32,000 nucleotides of DNA from Lentimicrobium sp. (GTDB taxonomy: Bacteria > Bacteroidota > Bacteroidia > Bacteroidales > Lentimicrobiaceae), in assembly GCA_034005265.1 (NCBI GenBank), contig JAVEVB010000034.1, forward strand, positions 1 to 32,000, written 5' to 3'. The translations under genes were made by a program, and so were the position numbers. This document shows positions 1 to 27,386 of this stretch, piece by piece. The notes beneath the pieces are model-generated. The model was not told where the DNA came from. It did not search any database and saw nothing but the letters and a program-made list of their open reading frames with translations. The stretch's first letter is position 1; each line of letters starts with the position of its first letter.

Positions 1-221
1 CAATCACCAATCACTAATCACCAATCACAAATCACAAATCACCAATCACCAATCACAAATCACAAATCACCAATCACCAATCACCAATTACCAATCTCCA
101 ATCACTAATCACCAATCACTAATCACCAATCACCAATCACTATTCACCAATCACCAATCACCAATCACTATTCACCAATCACCAATCACCAATCACCAAT
201 CACCAATCACCAATAAATCCT
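1..221 (+). repeat. Tandem heptanucleotide array, unit AATCAC[C/T/A], about 30 units, truncated by the window edge
   Basis: Direct reading shows uninterrupted period-7 repeats. There is no G on the + strand from 1 to 223, and variation sits mainly at the 7th position. Confidence 0.95.
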
Positions 222-242
222 TTGAATCCTAAAAACTTTCCA

Positions 243-1103
243 ATGGATAAAGCAGAAATCGTAATTTACAAGGAATCTGATAGTGCCGACTTCCAGATCG
301 AAGTTAGGGTTGAAGATGAAACCGTATGGCTTACCCAATCTCAAATGGCCGAATTATTTGATGCAACAAAACAAAACATCAGCCTTCATATAAGTAATAT
401 ATTCAGCGAAGGTGAACTTGAAACTGCGGCAACTGTCAAGGAATCCTTGACAGTTCAACTGGAAGGCTTAAGAAAAGTAAAAAGGAACATTAATTACTAC
501 AATCTTGATGTTATAATTTCAGTTGGATACCGGGTAAAATCTATACGTGGTACCCAATTCAGGATATGGGCAAACAAAGTACTTAAAGAATATCTTTTGA
601 AAGGCTATGTTGTTGATCATCGTATTGGAAAAATCGAAAAAGAAGTTTATTCATTGAATAAGAGATTTGATGAATTTGAATTTCAGATCAAAAGTAACTT
701 TCCTCCATCAGAGGGCATTTTCTTTGATGGCCAAATATTCGATGCCTGGCAATTCGTTTCACGATTGATCAAAGATGCCGAAGAAACTATTGTTTTAATC
801 GATAACTACGTGGATGAAAGTGTTTTGATGTTACTTTCCAAAAGAAACCCAAATGTGAAAGCAACAATCTTCACCGGCAACATCACCAAACAACTCGCAA
901 CTGACCTGAAAAAACATCATCAGCAATATCCGGTAATAGAATTGAAACACTTTTCAAAATCACACGACCGCTTTTTAATCATTGATATGAAAACTGTTTA
1001 TCATATTGGAGCCTCATTGAAAGACCTGGGAAAGCGTTGGTTTGCCTTCTCAAAAATTAACCTTGACCCCAAAGACTTACTTAAGCGAATCGAGGAAGAA
1101 TAA
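243..1103 (+). CDS. RhuM-family (virulence protein RhuM-like) protein
   Basis: The N-terminal signature VWLTQSQMAELFDATKQNISLHISNIFSEGEL and the segment YYNLDVIISVGYRVKSIRGTQFRIWANKVLKEYL are typical of RhuM. I prefer the ATG at 243 over the TTG at 222. Confidence 0.85.
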   Translation: MDKAEIVIYKESDSADFQIEVRVEDETVWLTQSQMAELFDATKQNISLHISNIFSEGELETAATVKESLTVQLEGLRKVKRNINYYNLDVIISVGYRVKSIRGTQFRIWANKVLKEYLLKGYVVDHRIGKIEKEVYSLNKRFDEFEFQIKSNFPPSEGIFFDGQIFDAWQFVSRLIKDAEETIVLIDNYVDESVLMLLSKRNPNVKATIFTGNITKQLATDLKKHHQQYPVIELKHFSKSHDRFLIIDMKTVYHIGASLKDLGKRWFAFSKINLDPKDLLKRIEEE

Positions 1104-1140
1104 GGTTCCGTGTTTCGTGTTCAGGGTTCAGTGAACAATG

Positions 1141-1518
1141 AACACCAATCACCAATCACAAATCACCAATCACCAATCACCAATCACTAATAACTAATCA
1201 CTAATAACTAATCACCAATCACCAATCACTAATCACTAATCACCAATCACCAATCACCAATCACTAATAACTAATCACCAATCACCAATCACCAATCACC
1301 AATCACCAATCACCAATCACCAATCACCAATCACCAATCACCAATAACTAATCACCAATCACTAATAACTAATCACCAATCACTAATAACTAATCACCAA
1401 TCACCAATCACCAATCACCAATCACCAATCACCAATCACCAATCACCAATCACCAATCACCAATCACCAATCACCAATCACCAATCACTAATCACCAATC
1501 ACTAATCACCAATCACTA
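1141..1518 (+). repeat. Tandem heptanucleotide array (AATCACC / AATCACT / AATAACT / AATCACA), about 54 units
   Basis: Direct reading shows period 7. The + strand has no G from 1141 to 1520. This is the same family as 1-221. Confidence 0.97.
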
Positions 1519-2676
1519 ATGACTAATCACAAGTCACCAATCACCAAATTAAAAGTCCTCACCGTCGTCGGCACCCGCCCCGAAATCATCCGCCTCTCCT
1601 GCGTGTTGCAAAAGCTGGATGCCTCTGAAGCCATTGATCATATCCTGGTGCATACCGGACAGAATTACGACTACGAACTGAACGAAGTTTTCTTTGAAGA
1701 CCTCGGATTGCGTCGTCCTGATTTCTTTTTGAATGCTGCCGGCACCAATGCCACCACTACCGCCGGGCAGATATTGATCAATATTGACCCCGTGCTCGAA
1801 CAGGTAAACCCCGATGCCTTTCTGGTACTGGGCGACACCAACTCATGCCTTTGTGCCATAGCCGCCAAAAAACGGCACATCCCCATCTTTCACATGGAAG
1901 CCGGAAACCGCTGTTTCGACCAGCGTGTGCCCGAGGAAAGCAACCGTAAAATTGTTGATCACATCAGCGACATCAATATGACTTACAGCGATATCGCCCG
2001 CGAATATCTGCTGCGCGAAGGCCTGCCTGCCGACCGCATCATAAAAACCGGCAGCCCCATGTTTGAGGTATTGCAGCATTATATGCCCAAAGTTGAACAA
2101 TCTGCCATACTCAACACCCTGGGCTTAACCAAGGGGAACTATTTTGTGGTATCAGCCCACCGCGAGGAAAATATAGCTTCTGAAAAGAACTTCTTTAACC
2201 TGGTTGAAATCCTGAACCAGATTGCCACAAAATTCAATCTGCCGGTGATTGTTTCCACGCACCCCCGCACCCGCAAGATGATTGAAAAGCACCAGGTAAA
2301 ATTTCATGAGCAGGTACGCCTGATGAAACCCATGGGCTTGAGCGACTACCTTGCCCTGCAGGTAAACTCAAAAACAGTGCTGTCGGATAGTGGCACCATT
2401 TCAGAGGAATCTTCCATTCTGAACTTCCGTGCCTTAAACATACGTGAGGCCCACGAGCGCCCCGAAGCCATGGAAGAAGCATCGGTGATGATGGTTGGCC
2501 TCAACCCCGAACGGGTAATGCAAGGCCTCGTGCAGTTGCAATACCAGAAAACCGGCAACGAACGCAATCTCCGCCAGATCGCCGACTACAGCATGCCGAA
2601 TGTAAGCGACAAGGTGGTGAGAATTATTCTGAGTTATACCGATTATGTGAAACGAACGGTGTGGAGTGAAAAATAG
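1519..2676 (+). CDS. Non-hydrolysing UDP-N-acetylglucosamine 2-epimerase, FnlC/Cap5G/WbjD-like
   Basis: Motifs VVGTRPEIIRLS, ILVHTGQNYDYELNEVFF and HMEAGNRCFDQRVPEESNRKIVDH are present. The only canonical start is an ATG inside a degenerate repeat unit (AATGACT). Confidence 0.9.
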   Translation: MTNHKSPITKLKVLTVVGTRPEIIRLSCVLQKLDASEAIDHILVHTGQNYDYELNEVFFEDLGLRRPDFFLNAAGTNATTTAGQILINIDPVLEQVNPDAFLVLGDTNSCLCAIAAKKRHIPIFHMEAGNRCFDQRVPEESNRKIVDHISDINMTYSDIAREYLLREGLPADRIIKTGSPMFEVLQHYMPKVEQSAILNTLGLTKGNYFVVSAHREENIASEKNFFNLVEILNQIATKFNLPVIVSTHPRTRKMIEKHQVKFHEQVRLMKPMGLSDYLALQVNSKTVLSDSGTISEESSILNFRALNIREAHERPEAMEEASVMMVGLNPERVMQGLVQLQYQKTGNERNLRQIADYSMPNVSDKVVRIILSYTDYVKRTVWSEK

Positions 2677-2800: not shown

Positions 2801-4330
2801 TTGGAATCTACATCATCTTCAAATAAACGTATTGCGAAGAATACGATGATGTTGTATATAAGGATGCTGCTTACGATGGCAGTTTCTTTATATACTTCAC
2901 GCATCGTATTGAATACACTGGGTGTTGAAGATTTTGGTATTTACAATGTGGTAGGTGGATTTGTTACCATGTTTGCATTTTTGAACAGTGCAATGGCCAC
3001 TGCAACCCAGCGATTCCTCTCTTTTGAAATTGGCCGTAAGGACAGCGTCCAGTTAGGCAATGTATTTAGCATGAGTGTTAACATTCATTTTATTATTGCT
3101 TTTGTTATTCTAATTTTTGCGGAAACAGTCGGTTTGTGGTTTGTAAACACTCAGTTAACGATACCACCAGAAAGGATGGTAGCTGCCCAATGGGTTTATC
3201 AATTTTCAATTTTAGCATTAATGGTGAATGTGGTAAGCGTACCCTATAACGCCATTATTATTGCCCATGAGCGGATGAATGTATATGCATGGGTAAGTAT
3301 AGCCGAAGTAAGTTTAAAATTACTAATTGTATTTATGCTACAATGGTTTGGTTTTGATAAACTAAAGTTATACGCCATTTTAATTTTTTCAGTTACTTTA
3401 ACTATAAGGTTGGTTTATGGTGTTTATTGCAATAAAAACTTTAAAGAAAGTAAATTTAGTTTCTTTTGGGATAAACCTTTGTTTAACACTTTATTGAGCT
3501 ATGCCGGATGGAATCTCTGGGGTAATGCAGCTATGGCCATGTATGGTCAAGGTGTAAATGTATTGCTGAACATTTTCTTCGGACCAGCGATAAATGCTGC
3601 AGCTGGAATAGCATATCAAATAAGTGGCAGCATAAATGGGTTCGTTCAAAATTTTCAAATGGCAATGAATCCACAAATCATTAAATCTTTTGCAGCTAAT
3701 AATATTAAATACATGCATCAGCTTATTTTTCAAGGAGCGAAGTATTCATTTTTTTTACTTCTTGTTTTTTCACTTCCTATTTTAATGGAGACAGGAACAA
3801 TTTTAAAATTATGGTTAAAAATCGTTCCTGAACACACGATTGTGTTTACCCAATTGGTAATTGCTACGGCATTAATAAATAGCATCTCTGGCCCGCTAAT
3901 GACATCAGCACAAGCTTCTGGAAAAATAAAGTTTTATCAAGCGGTCGTTGGCGGGATTTTATTATTAATTCTTCCTATTTCTTATTTTTTTTTCAAATTA
4001 GATTTTCCTCCTGAAACAACTTTCGTAATAAGTTTTATAATCTATATTTTCGCACTTTATGCGAGATTAATAATTGTGAGTCCGCTTGTCAATTTATCTA
4101 TCCGGGACTACATGAAAAATGTTGTTTTGCAAATTATTCCTGTTTTTCTGGTGTCAACATTACTGCCAATTATTGTTAAACATTATATGACTGAGGGAAT
4201 TCTGAGATTTTTCATAGTCAGCTTCATTTCTGTTATATCAGTTATTTTTAGCATTTATGTGTTTGGACTCAAACACGAAGAACGTCAGTTTTTAGGTCAA
4301 AAACTAGGACAAGTTGTCTTTAAAAAATGA
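2801..4330 (+). CDS. wzx: Wzx-type polysaccharide flippase (MOP superfamily)
   Basis: The 509-aa protein is polytopic. Its N-terminus KRIAKNTMMLYIRMLLTMAVSLYTSRIVLNTLGVEDFGIYNVVGG is typical of Bacteroidota flippases. The TTG start is uncertain. Confidence 0.8.
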   Translation: MESTSSSNKRIAKNTMMLYIRMLLTMAVSLYTSRIVLNTLGVEDFGIYNVVGGFVTMFAFLNSAMATATQRFLSFEIGRKDSVQLGNVFSMSVNIHFIIAFVILIFAETVGLWFVNTQLTIPPERMVAAQWVYQFSILALMVNVVSVPYNAIIIAHERMNVYAWVSIAEVSLKLLIVFMLQWFGFDKLKLYAILIFSVTLTIRLVYGVYCNKNFKESKFSFFWDKPLFNTLLSYAGWNLWGNAAMAMYGQGVNVLLNIFFGPAINAAAGIAYQISGSINGFVQNFQMAMNPQIIKSFAANNIKYMHQLIFQGAKYSFFLLLVFSLPILMETGTILKLWLKIVPEHTIVFTQLVIATALINSISGPLMTSAQASGKIKFYQAVVGGILLLILPISYFFFKLDFPPETTFVISFIIYIFALYARLIIVSPLVNLSIRDYMKNVVLQIIPVFLVSTLLPIIVKHYMTEGILRFFIVSFISVISVIFSIYVFGLKHEERQFLGQKLGQVVFKK

Positions 4331-4352
4331 TTCAGCCCAATAAAACAATAAC

Positions 4353-5480
4353 ATGAAAAATTTGCTTTTTTCTGGCTACTATGGTCATCAAAATACTGGA
4401 GACGATGCATTTATTGAAGTTGCAGCTTGGGGTGCAAAAAAATACTGGCACTGCGGAAATAGTAAGTTTATAACACAAAATTTACCGATAATTCAAAATC
4501 ATGCGGATTTAGTGGGGAAAAATTATTTTAAAGGAAACTATTTCTTAAAAAGTACAATTGCAACTATTTCTGCTGATGCTTTCATTTGTGCTGGTGGGTC
4601 AACTTTCCATTCCCCAATCAACGATTTGGATCCAATCAATATTGCAAGGCTGAAAAAGAAATATTTTCAAAAATTCAAGATCGGAGCAATAGGTGTATCT
4701 TTGGGTCCATATCGATCCATTGTTGCTGAAAAGGAAAACATTAATCTATTGCGCAAATTTGATTTTCTTGCCCTCCGGGATAAAGAATCCTATAAAATGG
4801 CTATGGAATATAATTTACCCTATGAACCTATAGAAGCATTCGATTTAGCCGCACTTTTACCCAAAATTTATGGCAATATTTCAAAAGACGAGATACCTTT
4901 CCAAAAAAATATTTTAGGGATCAGCATTTGCAATTATGAGAGCTATTTGAAAAACGGAGATTTAAAAAATGAAGCTCGAAGAAATGAACAAATAGAAAAT
5001 CTTTTATTTAAAATTGCTGGTTTAAACCAGAAGACGGTATTTCGATTTTTTATTTTTAATGGCAACAAGAATATAGGTGATAAAAAGGCTACGTTGGCAC
5101 TAGTAAGCAAGTTAAAATCAATAAAATCCTTTGTGTGTGAGATTGTAGATTATGACCCAAACACTTATAATACTTGGTTAAAAATACAAGAATGTAATTT
5201 GGTTATATCCACTAGACTTCATGCAGCTGTCTTTGCTTGTTTTGCCAATGTACCGTTTTTTTTGGTTGAGTATCACAGAAAATGCTCGGATTTTTTAAAT
5301 AACATTGGATACCAAAATAATTATAGAATTTTTGATGCCGACTTTGAAGTCAATAAATTCGCATTAAAAATAATTGAACTGTTGGCCGAAAAACAGCCAT
5401 ACATAAAACCAACGAATATTGATAAAGCAGTTGACAAAGCCGAATATAATTTCACAAAAATCAAAATTCATGGAGGCTAA
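4353..5480 (+). CDS. Polysaccharide pyruvyl transferase family protein
   Basis: It has the N-terminal GYYGHQNTGDDAF motif and the C-terminal STRLHAAVFA segment characteristic of CsaB/WcaK-type pyruvyl transferases. Confidence 0.85.
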   Translation: MKNLLFSGYYGHQNTGDDAFIEVAAWGAKKYWHCGNSKFITQNLPIIQNHADLVGKNYFKGNYFLKSTIATISADAFICAGGSTFHSPINDLDPINIARLKKKYFQKFKIGAIGVSLGPYRSIVAEKENINLLRKFDFLALRDKESYKMAMEYNLPYEPIEAFDLAALLPKIYGNISKDEIPFQKNILGISICNYESYLKNGDLKNEARRNEQIENLLFKIAGLNQKTVFRFFIFNGNKNIGDKKATLALVSKLKSIKSFVCEIVDYDPNTYNTWLKIQECNLVISTRLHAAVFACFANVPFFLVEYHRKCSDFLNNIGYQNNYRIFDADFEVNKFALKIIELLAEKQPYIKPTNIDKAVDKAEYNFTKIKIHGG

Positions 5481-6357
5481 ACATATTTATTTTAGCATTG
5501 TAATACCGCTCTTTAATAAGGGTAAAAGTATAAGTAGTACGATAAATTCAGTTTTAAATCAAACCTATAGTGATTTTGAATTAATTCTTGTAAACGATGG
5601 CTCAACGGATAATAGTGTAAATATCGTAGAAAGCTGCGATGACAAACGCATTCGATTAATACACCAAGAGAATAAAGGTGTTTCAGCGGCACGAAATAGA
5701 GGTATTCAAGAAGCTAAAAATGAGTGGATAGCTTTTTTAGATGCTGATGATCAATGGGACAATACATATTTAGAAAAAATGCAACAATTAATAATTGATT
5801 TTCCTCAAGCTTCCTTTTTAGGTTGTCAATTTGCACAAAAAGAAAGAGATAATGTCAGATTAGTCAATGGAGTTCATCAAGTTAGGGGTTATATTGAGAA
5901 TTATTTCCAGTTTGCGATTATAGCTCCTCTTGTACATTCATCTGCGGTAATTGTAAAAAAATCTTGTTTTGATGTTGTTGGCATATTTAATTCAAAATTT
6001 TCAAGGGGCGAAGATCTTGATATGTGGAATAGATTAGCAAAGAATTTCACCTTAGCATTTGAACCAACTTTACTAAGTTATTATATTCAAGATTCAGATA
6101 ATAGAGCATGTAAAAATATTCCTTCATTAGAAAAATTCTATTTAGCGCCTAATTTATTCAGACTCCCAAAATATGAGCAAAAGTATATGATTATACTTCT
6201 AAAGGGAGTCTTGTCTGAGTTGTTCTCTTCAAAACATTATTTGACTTTTATAAGGCTTAGCTTAAAAAATCACCTTTATTCGATAATTGCTTTTAAAGAT
6301 ATTATTCTTAGCAGGTTTACAAGAAAAATTATGACACCTGATAAACATCTGGTATAA
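5470..6357 (+). CDS. Family 2 glycosyltransferase
   Basis: FSIVIPLFNKGKSISSTINSVLNQTYSDFELILVNDGSTDNS and the FLDADDQW (DxD) motif are present. The ATG at 5470 overlaps the upstream stop by 11 nt. Confidence 0.85.
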   Translation: MEAKHIYFSIVIPLFNKGKSISSTINSVLNQTYSDFELILVNDGSTDNSVNIVESCDDKRIRLIHQENKGVSAARNRGIQEAKNEWIAFLDADDQWDNTYLEKMQQLIIDFPQASFLGCQFAQKERDNVRLVNGVHQVRGYIENYFQFAIIAPLVHSSAVIVKKSCFDVVGIFNSKFSRGEDLDMWNRLAKNFTLAFEPTLLSYYIQDSDNRACKNIPSLEKFYLAPNLFRLPKYEQKYMIILLKGVLSELFSSKHYLTFIRLSLKNHLYSIIAFKDIILSRFTRKIMTPDKHLV

Positions 6358-13997: not shown

Positions 13998-14422
13998 GGT
14001 TCACGCTGCGCCCGCCGCGAAAGAGTTCACGCTGCGCCCGCTGCGAAAAGGTTCACGCCACGCCCGCTGCGAGAAACAAAAGTTCACGCCACGCTCGCCG
14101 CGAGAAACAATACGCCGCGCCCGCCGCGAGAAACAATACGCCGCGTTCGCCGCGAGAAACAACACGCCGCGCCCGTTGCGAGAAACAATACGCTGCGCCC
14201 GCTGCGAGAAACAATACGCCACGTTCGCCGCGAGAAACAACACGCTGCGCCCGCCGCGAGAAACAACACGCTGCGCCCGTTGCGAGAAACAATACGCTGC
14301 GCCCGCTGCGAGAAACAATACGCTGCGCCCGCTGCGAGAAACAACACGCCACGTTCGCCGCGAGAAACAACACGCTGCGCCCGCCGCGAGAAACAATACG
14401 CCACGTCCACCGCGAGAAACAA
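13998..14422 (+). repeat. Tandem 26-nt array, consensus YACGCYRCGYYCGYYGCGAGAAACAA: 4 irregular GTTCACGC-type units followed by 12 perfectly phased units (14111-14422)
   Basis: Direct reading shows contiguous units with no spacers. The array ends 7 nt before the GxxExxY ATG. Confidence 0.97.
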
Positions 14423-14429
14423 ATCATCT

Positions 14430-14816
14430 ATGGAAAACAAACCCGAAAACACCATCGCCACCGCCATCCTTGATCAGGCATTTAAAATTCACACCGAATT
14501 AGGCCCCGGATTGCTTGAATCTGTTTACGAGCGTTGTCTTCAGTACGAACTCATCGAAGCAGGGTACACAGCTCAGACGCAACTCCCTGTTCCAATGAAT
14601 TACAAATCCATACGTTTTGAAGCCGGATTTCGTATTGATCTTTTGGTAAATGATATGGTACTGGTCGAGATTAAATCGGTAGAAACATTGGCACCGGTTC
14701 ATTTTGCACAAACGCTTACCTATTTGAAGATGAAAAACATCAAACTGGGATTGTTAATCAATTTCAATGTTAAATATCTGAAGAATGGCATTCATCGGGT
14801 AGCTAATAATTTATAA
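14430..14816 (+). CDS. GxxExxY protein (PD-(D/E)XK nuclease-like fold)
   Basis: ENTIATAILDQAFKIHTELGPGLLESVYERCLQYEL carries the G-L-L-E-S-V-Y signature, and LLVNDMVLVEIKSV carries the D..E.K-like motif. I chose the ATG at 14430 because the longer ORF runs into the repeat. Confidence 0.9.
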   Translation: MENKPENTIATAILDQAFKIHTELGPGLLESVYERCLQYELIEAGYTAQTQLPVPMNYKSIRFEAGFRIDLLVNDMVLVEIKSVETLAPVHFAQTLTYLKMKNIKLGLLINFNVKYLKNGIHRVANNL

Positions 14817-14821
14817 CTAAA

Positions 14822-14962
14822 CGGTTCACGCTTCGCTCGCCGCGAGAAAGGTTCACGCCGCGTTCGCTGCGAGAAAAGTTCACGCCGCGCTCGCCGCGAG
14901 AAAAAAAAGTTCACGCTGTACCCGCCGCGAGAAACAATACGCCGCGTTCGCCGCGAGAAACA
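14822..14962 (+). repeat. Second array of the same 26-nt family (5 units)
   Basis: It has the same 5'-to-3' polarity as the upstream array, with GTTCACGC-type units first and TACGC...GAGAAACAA units last. Confidence 0.9.
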
Positions 14963-14990
14963 ACAACCTACTCAATTTTTCACCCACCCA

Positions 14991-16222: not shown

Positions 16223-16864
16223 ATGGGTAGGATGAACAACAAACGCAAGTATCTGATCGCGGGCCTCTTGTCCGCATTTTTTATTTTTGGCATACTGTCG
16301 TTGCGGCAGGCGGGCAACTGGCTGGTTGTTTCCGATAAACCCATTCACGCCGATGCCCTGCTGGTGCTGATGGGTGGTGTGGAGGAACGTATTCCCCAGG
16401 CCATTGATTTGTACAAGGCGGGCTATGCGCCCCTGCTTCTTTTCCCGGACGATTATGAAGAAAACCCGCCCCTTATCCTGCCCAATGGCACAAAACTATC
16501 CAACGATGCCGCCAAAAGCAGGCACCTCAGCCGGCAGTATGGCGTACCCGACTCAGCCATCCGCATTGTTCAGGGGCCGGCATTGAATACACAGGCCGAA
16601 GCAGAGCTTATGGCAGGTTACCTTGAAGGTCATCCGGAAACGGATACCCTTATCCTGGTCAGTTCCTCCTACCATATGCGGAGGGCAAGCTTCATTTTCC
16701 GGAATGAATTTGCCTCAAAAGGGCTTGAAATTACCCTGATCAGCGTACCTTCGCGCTACAGCACGTTTAAGCCGGATAAATGGTGGAGATCAGGCACTTC
16801 ACGCAACATTGTTTTCTACGAATATTTAAAAATGGCTTATAACTTACTGTGGGACAGGTGGTGA
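16223..16864 (+). CDS. DUF218 / YdcF (ElyC-SanA-like) family membrane-anchored protein
   Basis: It has an N-terminal TM segment, LLVLMGG...AIDLYKAGYAP and LILVSSSYHMRRA. Confidence 0.75.
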   Translation: MGRMNNKRKYLIAGLLSAFFIFGILSLRQAGNWLVVSDKPIHADALLVLMGGVEERIPQAIDLYKAGYAPLLLFPDDYEENPPLILPNGTKLSNDAAKSRHLSRQYGVPDSAIRIVQGPALNTQAEAELMAGYLEGHPETDTLILVSSSYHMRRASFIFRNEFASKGLEITLISVPSRYSTFKPDKWWRSGTSRNIVFYEYLKMAYNLLWDRW

Positions 16865-16868
16865 AAAT

Positions 16869-16976
16869 GGTCTTTGGTCTTTGGTCTTTGGGGCGGAGGT
16901 GGTTGATGTTAGTTTTTCCCAGGATTTGTATAGCGATCTTAAGGCTTAAAGAGTCTTTAGTCTTTGGTCTTTGGGG
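16869..16976 (+). repeat. Two blocks of GGTCTTT heptamers (16869-16893, 16951-16976), each followed by GGGGCGG(A)GGTGGTTG
   Basis: Direct reading shows these are the reverse complement of the AAAGACC blocks downstream. Confidence 0.9.
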
Positions 16977-17071
16977 CGGTGGTTGGCAATTTGAGCCTCA
17001 GCCCAGGAAATAAACTTATTAACTTTTAGTTATGAAAGTTTTTTTAAAGCTTAATCTTCGTTCTAAAACAA

Positions 17072-17170
17072 CCAAAGACTAAAGACCAAAGACCAACACC
17101 CAAAGACCAAAGACTAGAACCACAACAAATGTTAGTTCTAACTTCTCATCATAAAACAACAACACCCAAA
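17072..17170 (+). repeat. AAAGACC/AAAGACT heptamer block (17072-17115) followed by copy 1 of a 53-bp direct repeat (17118-17170)
   Basis: The direct repeat aaccacaacaaatgttagttctaacttctcatcataaaacaacaacacccaaa recurs at 17641-17693 with one mismatch. Confidence 0.9.
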
Positions 17171-17180
17171 ACCCAACCCC

Positions 17181-17534
17181 ATGCGCGACTTCCGAAAACT
17201 AACCGTCTGGCAGAAATCAATAGAATTTGCAAAAGACATCTACCTTATTACAAAACAATTTCCGGACAAAGAGAGGTATGGACTGTGCAGTCAGTTACAA
17301 CGTGCAGCGGTCTCCATTCCATCCAATATAGCAGAAGGATCTGCCAGAAGAACATCAAATGATTTTGCACGTTTTCTGGATATTGCTTTAGGCTCAGCGT
17401 TTGAAGTGGAAACTCAACTAACCATTGCCCATCAAATAGCTTACCTGGATAGTGAAACCTTTCAAAAATTACTGGGAGAGCTTACTATCCTTCAAAAGCA
17501 AATCAATATGTTGCGAACAAAAATTCTTGACTAG
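17181..17534 (+). CDS. Four-helix-bundle protein ('23S rRNA intervening sequence protein' family)
   Basis: MRDFRKLTVWQKSIEFAKDIY...GLCSQLQRAAVSIPSNIAEGSAR...FLDIALGSAFEVETQL is the classic signature of this family. Confidence 0.9.
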   Translation: MRDFRKLTVWQKSIEFAKDIYLITKQFPDKERYGLCSQLQRAAVSIPSNIAEGSARRTSNDFARFLDIALGSAFEVETQLTIAHQIAYLDSETFQKLLGELTILQKQINMLRTKILD

Positions 17535-17565
17535 CTTATTATTTTAAAAAACGAGAAGAACAGCT

Positions 17566-17713
17566 CCAAAGACCAAAAGCCCAACAAATGTTAGTTTATA
17601 ATCTAATCTCAGTGCTTATAACACCAAAGACCAAAGACCCAACCACAACAAATGTTAGTTCTAACTTCCCATCATAAAACAACAACACCCAAAGACTAAA
17701 GACCAAAGACTAA
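17566..17713 (+). repeat. AAAGACC blocks (17566-17580, 17624-17640, 17688-17713) enclosing copy 2 of the 53-bp direct repeat (17641-17693)
   Basis: This comes from direct reading. A partial third copy of the direct-repeat core (caacaaatgttagtt) lies at about 17582-17596. Confidence 0.9.
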
Positions 17714-18808: not shown

Positions 18809-18884
18809 AGGTGAATGGAACACGGATTTCACGGATTGCACTATCGCTGGCGCGCACAAGCACATCCCGGGGAAAGCGGTTCCC

Positions 18885-19028
18885 TTCGCGTAAATTCGCG
18901 TAATTAGCGGTTAAAAAAGCCTTAGCACTTGAAAACAATTAGCGTAAATCAGCGTAATTAGCGGTTAAAAAAACCTTCGCGGAAATGAGTAGTTGAAAAT
19001 AATTCGCGTAATTCGCGGTTAAATAACA
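18885..19028 (+). repeat. About 2.5 copies of a 55-64-nt unit built on TT(A/C)GCGTAAAT..GCGTAATTAGCGGTTAAAAAA
   Basis: This comes from direct reading. A 12-nt exact core (attagcgtaaat) also occurs at 17741-17752, upstream of the FemAB-like gene. Confidence 0.8.
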
Positions 19029-19668: not shown

Positions 19669-19726
19669 ATACAAGACCATAAACGTCTATCTTTGTAACA
19701 GAGAGGATTGTATAAAGAACCAGGGC

Positions 19727-19776
19727 TTGAATCCTGAAAGTCCCGAGAGGAGGTACGACGATTCGGGACTGAATCC
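19727..19776 (+). repeat. Single copy of the 42-nt hairpin unit TGAATCCTGAAAGTCCCGAGAGGAGGYACGACGATTCGGGAY
   Basis: The stem is AGTCCCGA/TCGGGACT. The same unit is tandemly repeated at 21275-21400. Confidence 0.85.
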
Positions 19777-19794
19777 ATTAATTGCAGTGATTCG

Positions 19795-19903: not shown

Positions 19904-21160
19904 ATGAAAAGTGTTCATTATTATCCTAGGATTTGTGATAACGTATTGAGTAGAAAGCTGCAATTAACTGGCGCAACGCTGATAGTTGGTCCGAAATGGT
20001 GTGGAAAAACAGAAACTGCCCTGCAAGCATCCAGGAGTGTCATCTATATACAGTCTGATCCGCAATATAAAGAAACCGGAAAAATAATGCCTTCCTTGTT
20101 GTTAGAAGGTGAAACTCCCCGGTTAATAGACGAATGGCAAGAAGTTCCTGAATTGTGGAATGCTGTGCGACACAGTGTTGATCAAAGAAGAAAGCAGGGG
20201 CAGTTTATACTGACCGGTTCGGCTACGCCACATGATGAAGTGATGGCTCATTCCGGAATAGGTCGTATATCAAGAATACTGATGCGTCCAATGACACTTT
20301 TCGAGTCAAAAGAGAGCACCGGCACTGTTTCACTCAAAGCACTTTTTGATGGTAAACCAGAGATTGCAGCTGTAAGTTCGTTGGATATTCCCCAATTGGC
20401 ATACTCAATATGTCGTGGAGGATGGCCGGGAGCAGTAACATTACTGAATGGTGGAGAATCGCTTGCCCGTGAATATACCGATATGCTTGTTGAGGCAGAC
20501 ATTAGTCATCTGGATGGTATAGAACGGAACCCCTATCGCGTTCGGCAGGTTTTACGCTCTTTAGCACGCAATATATCCACCTTAACCACTGCCCGTACAA
20601 TTTTAGAGGATGTGAGAGCGAACGATTTAACAATCAATGAGCGAACACTCGAAAGCTATCTCAATGCAATGCGCCGTCTGTTTGTTGTGGAAGATGTACC
20701 TGCATGGTCACCCTCTCTCCGATCAAAAACAACGATTCGAAACTCTGATAAACGGCAGCTGGCAGATCCATCTATAGCAGCAGCTGTGATGAGGGTGGAT
20801 GTAAATGGTTTACTGCACGATTTGAATACTTTTGGTTTCTTGTTTGAATCGTTATGCACACGGGATGTGCGGGTGTATGCACAATCCAATGACGGGGAAA
20901 TATTTCATTACAGAGATAAAGATGAATTGGAAATTGACCTGATAATATCACTTAACGATGGCAGATGGGCAGGTATAGAGGTGAAACTTGGGGAGCACCA
21001 GGCCGATGAAGCAGCCGCTAATTTGATTCAATTAAAAAACAAAGTGGATACATCGCGTAACGGAGAACCAAGTTTTTTGATGGTTCTTACTGGTGGAAAA
21101 TTTGCCTACCAACGTACTGATGGAGTAATGGTAGTGCCATTGGCTTGTTTAAGAGACTAA
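19904..21160 (+). CDS. AAA+ ATPase with C-terminal DUF4143 (restriction-endonuclease-like) domain
   Basis: It has Walker A GPKWCGKT, FILTGSA, and a C-terminal half with the LLHDLNTFGFLFESLCTRDV...DKDELEIDLII pattern typical of ATP-binding/DUF4143 proteins. Confidence 0.85.
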   Translation: MKSVHYYPRICDNVLSRKLQLTGATLIVGPKWCGKTETALQASRSVIYIQSDPQYKETGKIMPSLLLEGETPRLIDEWQEVPELWNAVRHSVDQRRKQGQFILTGSATPHDEVMAHSGIGRISRILMRPMTLFESKESTGTVSLKALFDGKPEIAAVSSLDIPQLAYSICRGGWPGAVTLLNGGESLAREYTDMLVEADISHLDGIERNPYRVRQVLRSLARNISTLTTARTILEDVRANDLTINERTLESYLNAMRRLFVVEDVPAWSPSLRSKTTIRNSDKRQLADPSIAAAVMRVDVNGLLHDLNTFGFLFESLCTRDVRVYAQSNDGEIFHYRDKDELEIDLIISLNDGRWAGIEVKLGEHQADEAAANLIQLKNKVDTSRNGEPSFLMVLTGGKFAYQRTDGVMVVPLACLRD

Positions 21161-21243
21161 AGTCTATTGTCAATAATCAAGTGAAAAAGTCGATGGTCGC
21201 TTGTCTCGGGAGCGCGAAGCGATAAAGAGGTAGGCGTTTGACA

Positions 21244-21268
21244 TTAGAAATTAGAAATTAGAAATTGG
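21244..21268 (+). repeat. TTAGAAA heptamer x3
   Basis: This comes from direct reading. The same heptamer recurs at 27454-27469. Confidence 0.8.
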
Positions 21269-21274
21269 AATAGT

Positions 21275-21435
21275 TGAATCCTGAAAGTCCCGAGAGGAGG
21301 CACGACGATTCGGGATTGAATCCTGAAAGTCCCGAGAGGAGGCACGACGATTCGGGATTGAATCCTTAAATCCTTAAATCCCTATAGTCCCGAGAGCAAA
21401 GCGATTCGGGATTGAATCTTTGAATCTTTGAATCC
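21275..21435 (+). repeat. Array of the 42-nt hairpin unit: two exact-period copies (21275, 21317), a third start at 21359, a degenerate copy, and 8-mer tails
   Basis: Direct reading shows period 42. The degenerate copy is at about 21385-21418. The tails are CCTTAAAT x2 and GAATCTTT x2. The array ends 8 nt before the aminotransferase ATG. Confidence 0.9.
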
Positions 21436-25536: not shown

Positions 25537-25541
25537 ACGCT

Positions 25542-25569
25542 GGATTTCAGATTTCAGATTGCAGTTGCA
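25542..25569 (+). repeat. GATTTCA-type heptamers immediately 3' of the stop codon
   Basis: The sequence ggatttcagatttcagattgcagttgca has a near-identical motif at 27324-27345. Confidence 0.7.
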
Positions 25570-26867: not shown

Positions 26868-27320
26868 ATGACCCCTTCCGATATTTCAAAAGGATCTCCC
26901 GATCAGGCCCTTAATGCCTTCAAATCAGGTTATAACTGCGCCCAGTCTGTGGTTAAGGCGTATGCCGAAGTATTTGGGTTTGATGAAGATCAGGCCTTAG
27001 CCTTGTCCAGTGGATTTGGGGGAGGTATGGGCGGCATGCAGGGAGCCTGCGGCGCGGTTACCGGTGCCTACATGGTGTTGGGCATGTTCTGTGCTGCAAA
27101 ATACAAGGACAATCATGAGCGTAAGGCATGCTCCGGGGCTTTTGTTCGTGAGTTTCACCGACAGTTCACAGCTATGCATCAAACCGATGAGTGCCGTGTT
27201 CTACTATGCCAGGACAGTTCGGTAAAGGCCGGGGAACGGGCGAAACTGCATCTGTCGGTGTGCGATGGCTATATTGTTGATGCAGTAGAAATTATTAATG
27301 GCTTGTTGGAGGCGTATTGA
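26868..27320 (+). CDS. C_GCAxxG_C_C family protein
   Basis: The spaced-Cys pattern of the family is present: GYNCAQSVVKAY, GGGMGGMQGACGAVTGAYMVLG, ECRVLLC and VCDGYI. Confidence 0.8.
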   Translation: MTPSDISKGSPDQALNAFKSGYNCAQSVVKAYAEVFGFDEDQALALSSGFGGGMGGMQGACGAVTGAYMVLGMFCAAKYKDNHERKACSGAFVREFHRQFTAMHQTDECRVLLCQDSSVKAGERAKLHLSVCDGYIVDAVEIINGLLEAY

Positions 27321-27386
27321 TTTCGGATTTCAGATTTCGGATTAGAGAATTCGGAAGTCAGATGTTTGAAGTCAGAAATCAGAAAT
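27321..27386 (+). repeat. Low-complexity heptamer-like tract (GATTTCR, then AGTCAGA/AATCAGA) starting at the first base after the stop
   Basis: Direct reading gives tttcggatttcagatttcggattagag...gaagtcagaaatcagaaat. Confidence 0.7.

Follow-up and report, generated by a model that had tools for sequence, protein, structure and literature searches.

We propose that the two long tracts without G at the beginning of the window, the whole 32,000-nucleotide stretch of Lentimicrobium sp. DNA analyzed here, derive from a single slippage-prone heptamer array, originally the 3' arm, rich in C and free of G, of a guest-gene cassette of the IVS type located at the fnlB|fnlC junction, expanded and then split by a later RhuM cassette. 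Judging from the comparison of related sequences, we put the probability of this reading at roughly 0.6. The features considered here, all on the + strand, are the following.

1–214, +: array 1, (CAATCAC)n, at least 30.6 units with 89% matches (TRF), G-free, cut by the window start
215–242, +: RhuM's own short leader with one TTGAATC unit (alignment A6 with locus L126)
243–1103, +: RhuM-family guest gene, 286 aa (PF13310, E 1.4e-25)
1104–1157, +: hairpin after the RhuM stop, (GTTCNGN)x4 then GAACA units, no U-tail (TRF at 1105–1133; RNA fold)
1143–1547, +: array 2, (CAATCAC)n, 57.9 units with 90% matches (TRF), G-free to 1520, last four degenerate units translated
1519–2676, +: FnlC/WecB-type UDP-GlcNAc 2-epimerase (TIGR00236, 238.6 bits; PF02350; 100% identical to P0121 of a Lentimicrobium sp. 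MAG)
2730–2743, +: two-unit remnant CAATTAC TAATCAC after fnlC, among CACTGATT-like units (pattern search)
16868–16974, +: G/T-rich heptamer arrays (TGGTCTT, GTCTTTG) just after a stop, 5' arm of the 4HB region (TRF)
17071–17114, +: ACCAAAG array of 6.3 units, complementary to 16868–16974, leading to the 4HB start (TRF; fold)
17181–17534, +: guest gene for a four-helix-bundle (4HB) protein, or "23S rRNA IVS protein" (TIGR02436, E 1.5e-38; PF05635, E 2.2e-41)
17560–17713, +: ACCAAAG/AAAGACT arrays 3' of the 4HB gene, C-over-G arm (TRF; direct flank similarity, z 31.7)

An earlier note on this DNA had described CAATCAC heptamer arrays and G-free tracts at 1–223 and 1141–1520, and both descriptions were confirmed by TRF and by a scan for runs lacking G. 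These two are the only G-free runs of at least 60 nt in the 32-kb window, with chance probabilities of ~6e-23 and ~1e-38, respectively, at the window's G content of 20.5%. The array sequence consists of A 0.44, C 0.37, T 0.18 and G 0, and its longest perfect runs comprise 5, 9 and 13 units. With head-to-tail 7-nt units in many copies and at high identity, the arrays fit the class of long heptanucleotide simple-sequence repeats (SSRs), and further period-7 arrays occupy spacers of the window at 16868, 17071, 21243, 25543 and 27319 (TRF). Parsing of the units gave only six distinct types of substitution, none of them to G; G avoidance beyond the inheritance of a G-free unit is thus weakly supported, its chance value being roughly (2/3)^6 = 0.09. 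Array 1 meets the window edge and its length of 220 nt is a lower bound, and the DNA is a MAG assembly, for which the copy number of arrays longer than a read is uncertain. One might then ask whether the arrays, or their lengths, came from short-read mis-assembly, considering that the arrays of this MAG exceed the typical read length, that the window begins inside array 1, and that many RhuM homologues are found on contigs of ~1–1.5 kb, a pattern that breakage of assemblies at the repeats on either side would produce. This seems very improbable to us. The CAATCAC unit is present at the fnlB|fnlC junction in independent assemblies, and the variants within the window's arrays are patterned as higher-order repeats instead of forming a collapsed monotone, with coherent unique sequence on both sides.

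The central comparison concerns the fnlB|fnlC junction in related loci, where the two genes, which belong to one pathway, are adjacent. In locus L127 the order is fnlB, (GTGATTG)5, a 4HB gene, (CAATCAC)5 and fnlC, and the two arms pair; L128 has the same order with a decayed 4HB gene, and L149 has (NNGGTGA)5, 4HB, (CAATCAC)n and fnlC. The array of these orthologs, about five units long, is translated. In alignment A2, the window and its relatives share the units adjoining the fnlC core, including a G-bearing (A/C)AGTCAC unit. From this alignment we conclude that array 2 is orthologous to the array that forms the 3' arm of the cassette between fnlB and fnlC in L127, L128 and L149. In the window itself, no GTGATTG array was found on the + strand by pattern search, the window starting inside array 1, and no 4HB gene flanks the CAATCAC arrays, between which RhuM (PF13310) is located. 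An upstream partner arm may lie beyond position 1. Among the features of an IVS-type element, arm orthology was found at the window's fnlB|fnlC site; a 4HB ORF, terminal inverted repeats and a 23S rRNA helix site were not.

The epimerase is an fnlC-type third gene of the fnlA-fnlB-fnlC triad within a glycan/exopolysaccharide operon, and the array runs in register into its reading frame (ATGACTA ATCACAA GTCACCA ATCACCA). Residues 1–9 (MTNHKSPIT) are encoded by the array, and the TIGR00236 match starts at residue 11. The earlier note had held ATG 1519 to be the only canonical start, and indeed no other ATG, GTG or TTG follows the in-frame stop at 1489 before the conserved core is reached. It had also derived this start from a repeat unit by one C-to-G change, with which alignment A2 agrees: the window's ATG stands opposite the ATC of a consensus unit in L127, and the ancestral ATG, retained in orthologs beginning MKKLKVL (L130), stands opposite the ATC of the window's last unit. 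An ortholog sub-clade of 85–93% identity carries N-terminal extensions of the QSPITNH type. Probably the array overran the ancestral fnlC start, and a C-to-G change in one of its units gave rise to the present one.

The position of RhuM between the two tracts can be considered separately. With array 1 breaking off at CAAT and array 2 picking up at CAC, the two are in phase across RhuM (chance 1/7), and the flanks of RhuM are direct repeats (z 58.7) and not inverted (z 0.5). In L126, which harbors the nearest relative of this RhuM, the upstream array is a different one, (TTGAATCY)n; homology with the window begins ~25 nt before the RhuM ATG (alignment A6), and block identities reveal a mosaic, with 99–100% DNA identity over the 5' 450 nt of RhuM and 62–80% in the 3' half. 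By this alignment, we take the TTGAATC unit in the window's RhuM leader to be left over from the (TTGAATCY)n array found ahead of RhuM in L126. The hairpin following the RhuM stop can be compared with the GTTCAGATT/CTGAAC modules after RhuM in L122. Taken as sequence features, these make RhuM look like a secondary guest, inserted later and splitting one array. The same RhuM protein is encoded in L122, L123 and L124, which differ by 123 nt in array length and by a duplicated 4HB-plus-array unit. A RhuM-specific tie to the arrays was considered and set aside: the RhuM flanks of L121 and L122 share no common repeat, and L126 has another unit.

A second region, at ~17 kb in the window, retains both arms around a 4HB gene. 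In the fold of 16862–17182, the G/T-rich arrays at 16868–16974 pair with the ACCAAAG arrays with an MFE of -92.5 kcal/mol (z -4.5). How general such an arrangement is was assessed with 80 4HB genes from metagenomes, a non-random sample of the best tblastn matches to one 4HB subfamily with crude ORF calls; the search for 4HB loci used a three-sequence profile, a profile of eight 4HB proteins being too divergent. Tandem arrays were found upstream of the 4HB gene in 59/77 cases vs 16/66 controls (Fisher p 3e-10) and downstream in 51/76 vs 15/66 (p 1e-7), and inverted-complementary flanks in 50/73 vs 4/66 control genes (p 4e-15). The period was 7 in 115 of the 125 arrays around 4HB genes. The unit itself is variable, with 36 distinct units in 37 loci, and the two arms co-vary: a unit matches the complement of its own partner at 5.84 of 7 positions vs 3.78 of 7 across loci, a value reached in 0 of 5000 permutations. 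The arms have a polarity, the upstream arm having G in excess of C in 41 cases and the opposite in 4, and the downstream arm C in excess of G in 40 and the opposite in 2, with G-free units in 24/51; this polarity holds in loci of 33–63% GC. The 4HB gene is co-oriented with both neighbors in 37/43, separated from them by gaps of ~73 and ~59 nt. GTGATTG/CAATCAC arms around 4HB genes recur in Brevundimonas (L034) and in a cyanobacterium (L081). Together, these sequence data suggest that an inverted period-7 arm layout is a rule for the 4HB gene family across GC contents and phyla; in the literature searched, such a 4HB/inverted-heptamer rule was not found beyond the Coxiella IVS. Mismatches compatible with G.U pairing showed no sense-strand bias (72 vs 93, p 0.12), leaving pairing as RNA and as DNA undistinguished. 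As a separate matter, the 5' arms were considered as Shine-Dalgarno mimics, which would account for the polarity, and this found no support, with an extended-SD match of at least 5 nt in 15% of units compared to 8.6% of shuffled ones.

We next have to consider how far CAATCAC arrays in other genomes agree with a cassette origin. A scan of genome contigs for exact (CAATCAC)x4 gave at least 120 sites in Nostocales and at least 10 other phylum-level groups. The cyanobacterial STRR sequences are period-7 tandem repeats, mostly intergenic, and the kinship that the earlier note had drawn with these cyanobacterial heptamer repeats is borne out by the presence of exact (CAATCAC)x4 in Nostocales, placing the window's arrays in the same class. 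Relative to flanking genes, the orientation of the arrays is mixed (++ 25, -- 20, convergent 22, divergent 8). Where a GTGATTG-like partner was present within 1 kb (18 arrays among the matches listed), the G arm came first in 17/18. No partner was detectable for 85% of the 120 arrays listed and only three adjoin a 4HB gene, so that these data do not establish a cassette origin for heptamer arrays at large. A tie of CAATCAC arrays to particular neighbor genes was dismissed; the neighbors are mostly housekeeping genes, and among 83 small ones only 4HB (3), AhpC (3) and Uma2 (2) recur. Such numbers could be taken to mean that the window carries an ordinary heptanucleotide repeat generated in place by polymerase slippage, with no cassette ancestry, particularly as the listed arrays are largely solitary beside housekeeping genes and as heptanucleotide repeats are the most abundant class of long SSR in many prokaryotes, according to Mrazek 2007 as cited in PMC4679880. 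We disfavor this explanation and regard it as unlikely: in three loci, the 3' arm of a 4HB cassette is the ortholog of the units bordering fnlC, the window holds a second arm/4HB/arm region, and the association of 4HB genes with arrays is strong and family-wide.

The expanded-arm reading also bears on what the arrays might do in the transcript. In an RNA fold of 1098–1560, the array is unpaired, in line with the structure-free RNA foreseen by the earlier note; the sole hairpin is that at ~1104–1157 after the RhuM stop, and the total MFE is -21 kcal/mol. Stops in every frame, another of its claims, are present in array 2, which also lacks a start codon, and not in array 1, where one frame is stop-free. 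Known RNA families (Rfam, including rRNA) were not found in the window, and neither sigma-70-type promoters nor intrinsic terminators were found at the arrays. The Bacteroidota -33/-7 promoter pattern (TTTG...TANNTTTG) matched the window twice, no more often than by chance, neither match being near the arrays; the tracts being G-free, a promoter of this type is impossible inside them. C-rich, G-poor, unstructured and untranslated RNA of >80 nt is what is expected of a rut site, and the earlier note had accordingly proposed a polarity or antitermination checkpoint. Rho would load onto the array and, if no antiterminator intervened, subject fnlC and the glycan genes behind it to polarity. Composition (~23 YC dimers per 100 nt over >380 nt, in addition to the base content given above), length and lack of structure bear out that part of the proposal. 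Comparative support did not follow, and we find the proposal as a whole doubtful. A rut site is defined by function, whereas the basis here is composition, for which the polarity of cassette arms in loci of 33–63% GC provides another explanation. The array lies between adjacent genes of a single pathway, is short and translated in orthologs, and, elsewhere, CAATCAC arrays take no fixed orientation to transcription.

Ribosomes of Bacteroidia ignore Shine-Dalgarno sequences, and the array could alternatively have been kept as an adaptive, structure-free and AUG-free pad, onto which the 30S subunit loads and from which it slides to the fnlC start after insertion of the guest. For Flavobacterium johnsoniae, Baez 2019 (PMC6847099) reports that low structure and A residues upstream tune initiation and that there is a depletion of AUG around starts, and suggests that the 30S subunit binds where the RNA is unstructured and then diffuses laterally. 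Among 47 same-strand spacers of these loci, the last 40 nt before starts have 11% G, 21% C and 40% A, as against 21% G directly after stops (p 1.4e-6). The SD-independent leader raised in the earlier note thus accords with Bacteroidia biology as far as G-poor pre-start spacers go, and leaves the complete lack of G unexplained. The fnlC start, moreover, is preceded by C at -3, T at -6, C at -12 and T at -13, positions where A is favored (Baez 2019, PMC6847099). A length of ~400 nt is far above a leader's need, orthologs manage with five translated units, and the polarity is equal in cassettes of Alphaproteobacteria and Cyanobacteria. We therefore consider selection for a leader rather unlikely.

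Runs of as many as 13 perfect units would be expected to slip with ease, which raises the question of whether the array serves as a contingency locus, or rheostat, in which changes in unit number tune expression of fnlC and the genes downstream. The nearest parallel is (ATCTTTC)n in the 5'-UTR of Haemophilus influenzae hmw1A (PMC12721329), likewise a G-free, pyrimidine-rich transcribed heptamer array upstream of a gene for a surface structure; its repeat number varies, the repeats pair with a G-rich arm, as do the heptamers of the cassette form, RNase III cuts the resulting hairpin, and expression is inversely proportional to heptamer number. The near-identical relatives L122–L124 differ in array length and cassette copy number, and the target here would be a surface-glycan operon. 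However, hmw1A is an experimentally supported phase-variable rheostat, whereas the window's array is known from sequence and has no visible partner arm. Furthermore, the fnlC ATG lies downstream of the perfect units, and changes in length would leave the reading frame unshifted. Capsule variation in Bacteroidales proceeds mainly via invertible promoters, and this too counts against a contingency function, which we hold to be improbable.

Returning to the expanded cassette arm, its history can be sketched as follows. On our reading, the ancestral cassette in this Bacteroidales clade consisted of (GTGATTG)n, a 4HB gene and (CAATCAC)n. The 3' arm would have grown to ~90 units or more in the window, and a RhuM cassette arriving later would have split it, contributing the remnant leader with TTGAATC as well as a 3' hairpin of its own. 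That the array has no G would then be an inheritance from the cassette family, in which an upstream arm rich in G and poor in C is matched by a complementary downstream arm. In an intact cassette, the arms would pair in the operon transcript in the manner of the terminal inverted repeats of a 23S rRNA IVS, and RNase III would cut the paired arms, removing the promoterless guest from the host transcript. With no complementary arm visible in the window, its arrays are probably an orphaned, expanding arm, that is, an untranslated, unstructured and start-codon-free spacer or leader crossed by transcription of the operon, whose influence on expression further downstream, if any, would depend on its length.

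The analogy with the 23S rRNA IVS deserves a closer look. The Coxiella IVS contains an S23p ORF, S23p being equivalent to 4HB, a 28-bp terminal inverted-repeat stem that RNase III cleaves, and, ahead of the ORF, tandem GACAGAT heptamers whose number varies among strains (PMC4990558); excision by RNase III is known for other 23S IVS elements as well (PMC4990558). The IVSs of Coxiella burnetii and Leptospira (PMC4990558) resemble the cassette in the PF05635 guest, which the latter has at the orthologous junctions and elsewhere in the window, in being a promoterless sense insert within a host transcription unit, in their inverted-repeat termini and strain-variable heptamers before the ORF, and in being regarded as selfish. 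In contrast to them, the host here is an mRNA operon for glycan biosynthesis and the arms are long tandem heptamer arrays; the window site, in addition, encloses RhuM between direct and not inverted arrays, with an arm of ~400 nt, and a role for RNase III is proposed by analogy. Integron cassettes are alike in forming runs of small promoterless same-strand guests (toxin-antitoxin, 4HB, PDDEXK_3, RhuM) with structured repeats between them. An attC identity was rejected, the GTTRRRY/RYYYAAC cores being absent, the order being GTTC...GAAC and the spacers being tandem 7–10-nt arrays; no integrase was seen among the genes of the loci read.

Two further groups of period-7 repeats can be compared. 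In Xanthomonas (GGGAATC) and Nostoc (GGGGAYT), most of the heptamer arrays lie between genes; they are transcribed and differ in length between relatives, and 70–75 of those in Xanthomonas occur as convergent inverted pairs (PMC4692102). That study focused on G-quadruplex potential and drew no link to 4HB genes, whereas the unit in the window has no G-tract and belongs to a Bacteroidales MAG. TAACTGA repeats of Beggiatoaceae, Cyanobacteria and some Bacteroidetes, with long arrays in some of the latter, are intergenic, often just upstream of starts and operon-internal, and their scattered distribution suggests transfer (PMC4679880). Here the unit differs, and the paper, which describes neither a cassette nor inverted arms, suggests that a translational regulator binds the repeats (PMC4679880).

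On a broader scale, we offer a tentative generalization, which is possible but which we would not bet on. The period-7 arrays of many bacteria might in substantial part be arms, or orphaned or empty derivatives of arms, of widespread promoterless operon cassettes encoding Avd-like 4HB (S23p/IVS) proteins. Their G-rich 5' and C-rich 3' arms would pair in any rRNA or mRNA transcript and be cut by RNase III, constituting an insert excisable at the transcript level. Such arrays would slip, expand and take further guests (RhuM, GxxExxY, toxin-antitoxin), with glycan operons favored as hosts, and the arm in the window would be one that outgrew its cassette and gave a host gene its start codon.

Among long simple repeats, tandem heptanucleotides are the most frequent class in many prokaryotes. 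The window and its relatives tie one heptamer array to a concrete element, the inverted arms of 4HB cassettes, and a cassette-arm origin may help explain the 7-base repeats of many bacteria. The locus also indicates that a repeat can overwrite a gene start, supply a new one and add repeat-encoded residues to an enzyme, and the arrays explain the tendency of assemblies of such glycan loci to break. If the link to the cassettes holds, it would join the STRR/LSSR repeats, the rRNA intervening sequences and RNase III-dependent heptamers such as those of hmw1A, and would predict rnc-dependent cleavage in mRNA operons together with length-dependent expression.

The two CAATCAC tracts that surround RhuM, which the earlier note had described as G-free heptamer repeats, were recovered by Tandem Repeats Finder with a period of 7 and 89-90% matches to the consensus, and no stretch of the 32-kb window other than 1-223 and 1141-1520 lacks G over 60 nt or more, these two having chance probabilities near 6e-23 and 1e-38 at a window G content of 20.5%. 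The features concerned are listed below in forward-strand coordinates; array copy numbers are uncertain because the window sequence is from a MAG.

1-214: array 1, consensus CAATCAC, 30.6 copies (a lower bound, the array being truncated by the window edge)
243-1103: guest gene, RhuM
1143-1547: array 2, consensus CAATCAC, 57.9 copies
1519-2676: epimerase gene, fnlC-type
14430-14816: guest gene, GxxExxY/PDDEXK_3 protein
17181-17534: guest gene, 4HB (four-helix-bundle "23S rRNA intervening sequence protein" family)

The arrays are composed of A (0.44), C (0.37) and T (0.18), with G at 0, and contain perfect runs of up to 13 units with a higher-order pattern of the ctx type. In the predicted RNA fold of 1098-1560 the array stays unpaired, as had been expected of its transcript, and the sole hairpin lies directly after the RhuM stop. 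The accompanying claim that stop codons rotate through all frames fails for array 1, one reading frame of which is stop-free. We note that the pure CAATCAC unit leaves all three sense frames open, encoding QSPITNH, and that 12 of the 120 CAATCAC arrays listed from other genomes sit inside long open reading frames (L011, L020, L074, L108 and others).

The window consists of a single long exopolysaccharide operon with all genes on one strand, an exosortase among them, and its epimerase is 100% identical to the database protein P0121, annotated on a 43.5-kb contig of a Lentimicrobium sp. MAG. The epimerase gene is the third member of a conserved triad of Polysacc_synt_2 (fnlA-like), Epimerase plus Polysacc_synt_C (fnlB-like) and Epimerase_2 (fnlC-like) genes, and its close homologues are named UDP-N-acetyl-L-fucosamine synthase in some sources. 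The register of array 2 extends into this reading frame (...ATCACTA ATGACTA ATCACAA GTCACCA ATCACCA), in which no canonical start other than ATG 1519 occurs from the in-frame stop at 1489 to the conserved core, and TIGR00236 matches from residue 11 onward. Frame-shifting phase variation of fnlC is excluded because this ATG sits 3' of the perfect units. Most orthologues begin with MKKLKVL and are 377-379 aa long; in a sub-clade of 85-93% identity the N-terminus is instead extended by translated heptamer units, such as MSDPIQPITNHQSPITRLKVL and MTEDIRPVTGHQQPVTNHQSPVTKLKVL. At the related locus L127 the order is fnlB, TAG, (GTGATTG)5, a 4HB gene, ATG, (CAATCAC)5 and the fnlC core, and the two arms, that is, the arrays bracketing the 4HB gene, are predicted to pair across its ORF. 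L128 has the same arrangement but a decayed 4HB gene, and L149 has it with (NNGGTGA)5 upstream. When the window is aligned with L127 and with L130, an MKK-type locus (alignment A2), the last window units are common to L127, the G-bearing (A/C)AGTCAC unit included; L127 has the ATC of a consensus unit opposite the window ATG, and the ancestral ATG in L130 stands opposite the ATC of the final window unit. Thus the array overran the old fnlC start, a new one arose when a C became G within a unit, and homology confirms the earlier idea of a start born in a repeat unit. By this alignment we show array 2 to be orthologous to a 4HB cassette arm.

The fnlB-fnlC spacer of L130 is empty of a guest, and its two such arms are predicted to fold into a stable hairpin (MFE -42.2 kcal/mol, z -4.7). 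This spacer (5835-6003) folds CACTGATT/AATCAGTG units into a perfect 15-bp stem and resembles an empty site or a MITE-like remnant. The same locus carries a PDDEXK_3 guest between fnlA and fnlB (4185-4665) with inverted arms (CACTGATT)n/(AATCAGTG)n, and its epimerase has the ordinary MKK start.

The family was surveyed in 80 metagenome loci encoding 4HB relatives (locus GC 33-63%), which are the best matches to one 4HB subfamily and not a random sample, with crude ORF calling; controls were ORFs from the same loci more than 450 nt away, and tandem arrays were sought within 150 nt.

Flanks of 4HB genes and of control ORFs in the surveyed loci
Short tandem array within 150 nt upstream: 4HB 59/77; controls 16/66; Fisher p 3e-10
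Short tandem array within 150 nt downstream: 4HB 51/76; controls 15/66; Fisher p 1e-7
Inverted-complementary flanks (z>5): 4HB 50/73; controls 4/66; Fisher p 4e-15
Directly similar flanks (z>5): 4HB 6/73; controls 3/66

The period is 7 in 115 of the 125 arrays flanking 4HB genes. Among 37 loci there are 36 distinct units, each complementary to its own partner (5.84/7, compared with 3.78/7 across loci; the observed value was reached in 0/5000 permutations). G exceeds C in 41 upstream arms, with 4 showing the reverse, and C exceeds G in 40 downstream arms, with 2 the reverse; of 51 downstream arrays, 24 have a wholly G-free unit. Both neighbours share the orientation of the 4HB gene in 37/43 cases, the gaps being ~73 and ~59 nt, and the commonest neighbours, in an association that is not exclusive, are nucleotide-sugar and exopolysaccharide genes. 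The surveyed 4HB family therefore shows a rule of period 7, co-varying arms, strict polarity and sense orientation in operons. A mismatch-type test on the arms did not distinguish pairing at the RNA level from pairing at the DNA level. In the 4HB flanks of L134-L213, AGT is frequent in upstream-arm units and ACT in downstream ones (AGTGATG/ACTCATC, AGTTTCG/ACTCGAA), AGT occurring by our own count in ~28/60 upstream-arm units against ~18% expected; this bias hints at sequence-specific recognition besides pairing.

The polarity bears on both regulatory roles that had been suggested for the arrays. The composition of the arrays is indeed that of a rut site, but no other feature supports a Rho checkpoint, and the comparative data supply another cause for this composition: on the simplest reading, downstream arms lack G as a trait of the whole family and not as a special adaptation of this locus. 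A leader for SD-independent initiation would fit Bacteroidia: 47 spacers show G depletion ahead of start codons, and the general picture is supported by Baez 2019 (PMC6847099). However, none of the positions -3, -6, -12 and -13 of the fnlC start has the favoured A, and the G-poor polarity of the arms extends beyond Bacteroidia.

Exact (CAATCAC)x4 occurs at at least 120 sites in genome_contigs, with hosts including Nostocales, Pleurocapsa, Saprospiraceae, Chitinophagales, Paludibacter, Lysobacterales, Verrucomicrobia, Chloroflexi, Bdellovibrionales, Planctomycetes and CPR lineages. The 120 sites listed show mixed orientations with respect to adjacent genes (++ 25, -- 20, convergent 22, divergent 8), the neighbours are mainly housekeeping genes, and 3 sites adjoin 4HB genes; two of these three, Brevundimonas L034 and the cyanobacterium L081, have (GTGATTG)n, 4HB and (CAATCAC/CAGTCAC)n in this order. 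A GTGATTG-like partner lies within 1 kb of 18 of these 120 arrays, with the G arm first in 17/18. As the other 85% are solo arrays, we do not extend a cassette origin to heptamer arrays in general.

Homologues of RhuM with 66-88% identity come from Bacteroidales metagenomes, many on contigs hardly longer than the gene. On longer contigs RhuM lies within a same-strand series of small guests on the 5' side of polysaccharide genes, accompanied by several 4HB, PDDEXK_3, HicA, PIN, HepT/MNT, RelB, AbiEii, AAA_14/DUF4143 and ORF6N genes, and the spacers of these runs are all packed with tandem arrays of 7-10 nt. Units common to these spacers and the window are TTGAATCC, AATTAGA, ATCCGTGATA (the reverse complement of window CACGGATT), CAAAGAC and the GTTCAGATT/GTGTTCG family. 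RhuM does not carry the arrays along with it, since its closest relative, in L126, is preceded by (TTGAATCY)n instead of CAATCAC; homology between the two begins ~25 nt before the RhuM ATG, where the window retains one TTGAATC unit. L122-L124 encode an identical RhuM protein, yet show a 123-nt difference in one array and the duplication of a 4HB-plus-array unit; near-identical strains thus differ through turnover of both arrays and cassettes. RhuM itself is a mosaic (243-1103 compared with L126 245-1102), its first 450 nt being 99-100% identical between unrelated metagenome sources and its 3' half only 62-80%, which suggests, from sequence comparison, a recent recombinational exchange of the N-terminal (PF13310) module. 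Its C-terminal half has a weak, below-cut-off similarity to the VPA1262 N-terminal domain (NF040700, E 9.5e-8).

All three guest genes of the window lie between spacers full of short tandem repeats. The 4HB gene adjoins (ACCAAAG)n, with further ACCAAAG arrays downstream, and a post-stop (TGGTCTT)n is predicted to pair with (ACCAAAG)n (MFE -92.5 kcal/mol, z -4.5), giving a second example of the cassette architecture. A repeat type different from the heptamers, the GC-rich 26-27 nt CACGCCGCGCCCGCCGCGAGAAACAA, stands in direct orientation (z 40.6) on both sides of the PDDEXK_3 gene, with 16 copies upstream (14002-14422) and 5 downstream (14824-14963), each unit having a possible CGCG/CGCG mini-hairpin. 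Octamer arrays of TTGAATCC/TTGAATCT with ATTAGAA heptamers occur at 19720-19790 and 21243-21434, in L121 (2273-2777) and in L126 (1-240); embedded in them is a module of 42-70 nt that forms a hairpin, with tcccgag...ttcggga in the window and cccgcctcttttgcggg in both L121 and L126, which is kept across different Bacteroidales metagenomes and in the window brackets the gene 19904-21160 (direct z 19.7). The spacer before the exosortase gene (18821-19017) consists of repeated units of ~50-60 nt made of the 9-10-mers CACGGATT, TTCGCGTAAA and TAATTCGCG, the first matching in reverse complement the ATCCGTGATA repeats that fill the L122-L124 spacers. Outside the glycan operon, short GATTTCA/GATTTCG heptamer arrays (25540-25566, 27319-27386) begin at the stop codons of DUF1684 and C_GCAxxG_C_C genes, which fits the pattern of a G/T-rich array directly after a stop; at 27319-27386, GAAATCA units follow, making an inverted pair between convergent genes.

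Parts of this picture have precedents. IVS elements with S23p ORFs (the 4HB family) and heptamers are already known: in 23S rRNA the ORF lies between terminal inverted repeats whose stem is cut by RNase III, and in Coxiella 2-3 tandem heptamers GACAGAT, strain-variable in number, precede it (PMC4990558). In H. influenzae, the hairpin that transcribed (ATCTTTC)n forms with a G-rich arm is cut by RNase III, and more repeats lower expression (PMC12721329). Intergenic heptamer arrays have been described (MacGregor 2015, PMC4679880; Mrazek 2007, as relayed by a citing paper), and Xanthomonas has 70-75 inverted heptamer pairs with no gene family linked (Rehm 2015, PMC4692102). Our literature search, of incomplete coverage, found neither a general rule of operon 4HB genes bracketed by co-varying, polar period-7 arms nor an arm that overwrites and then re-creates a host start codon.

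Read most simply, array 2 represents the 3' arm of a 4HB cassette long resident at the fnlB|fnlC junction in this clade. It would have grown by slippage from ~5 to ~58 units, and array 1 would originally have been part of it, until a later RhuM cassette, bringing the TTGAATC leader remnant and a GTTC.../GAAC hairpin, split the two; the final CAAT of array 1 is continued in phase by the CAC with which array 2 opens (chance 1/7). By analogy with the IVS and H. influenzae elements, intact cassettes in mRNA operons would form a loop in the transcript of the host and be excised from it. No arm complementary to the CAATCAC arrays is visible within the window, and these arrays are therefore probably an orphaned, expanding arm. 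Such an arm would be tolerated because a start codon, structure and the Bacteroidota -7 motif are all impossible in it. Its role would be that of a long inert leader, influencing fnlC and the downstream genes at most in a length-dependent way.
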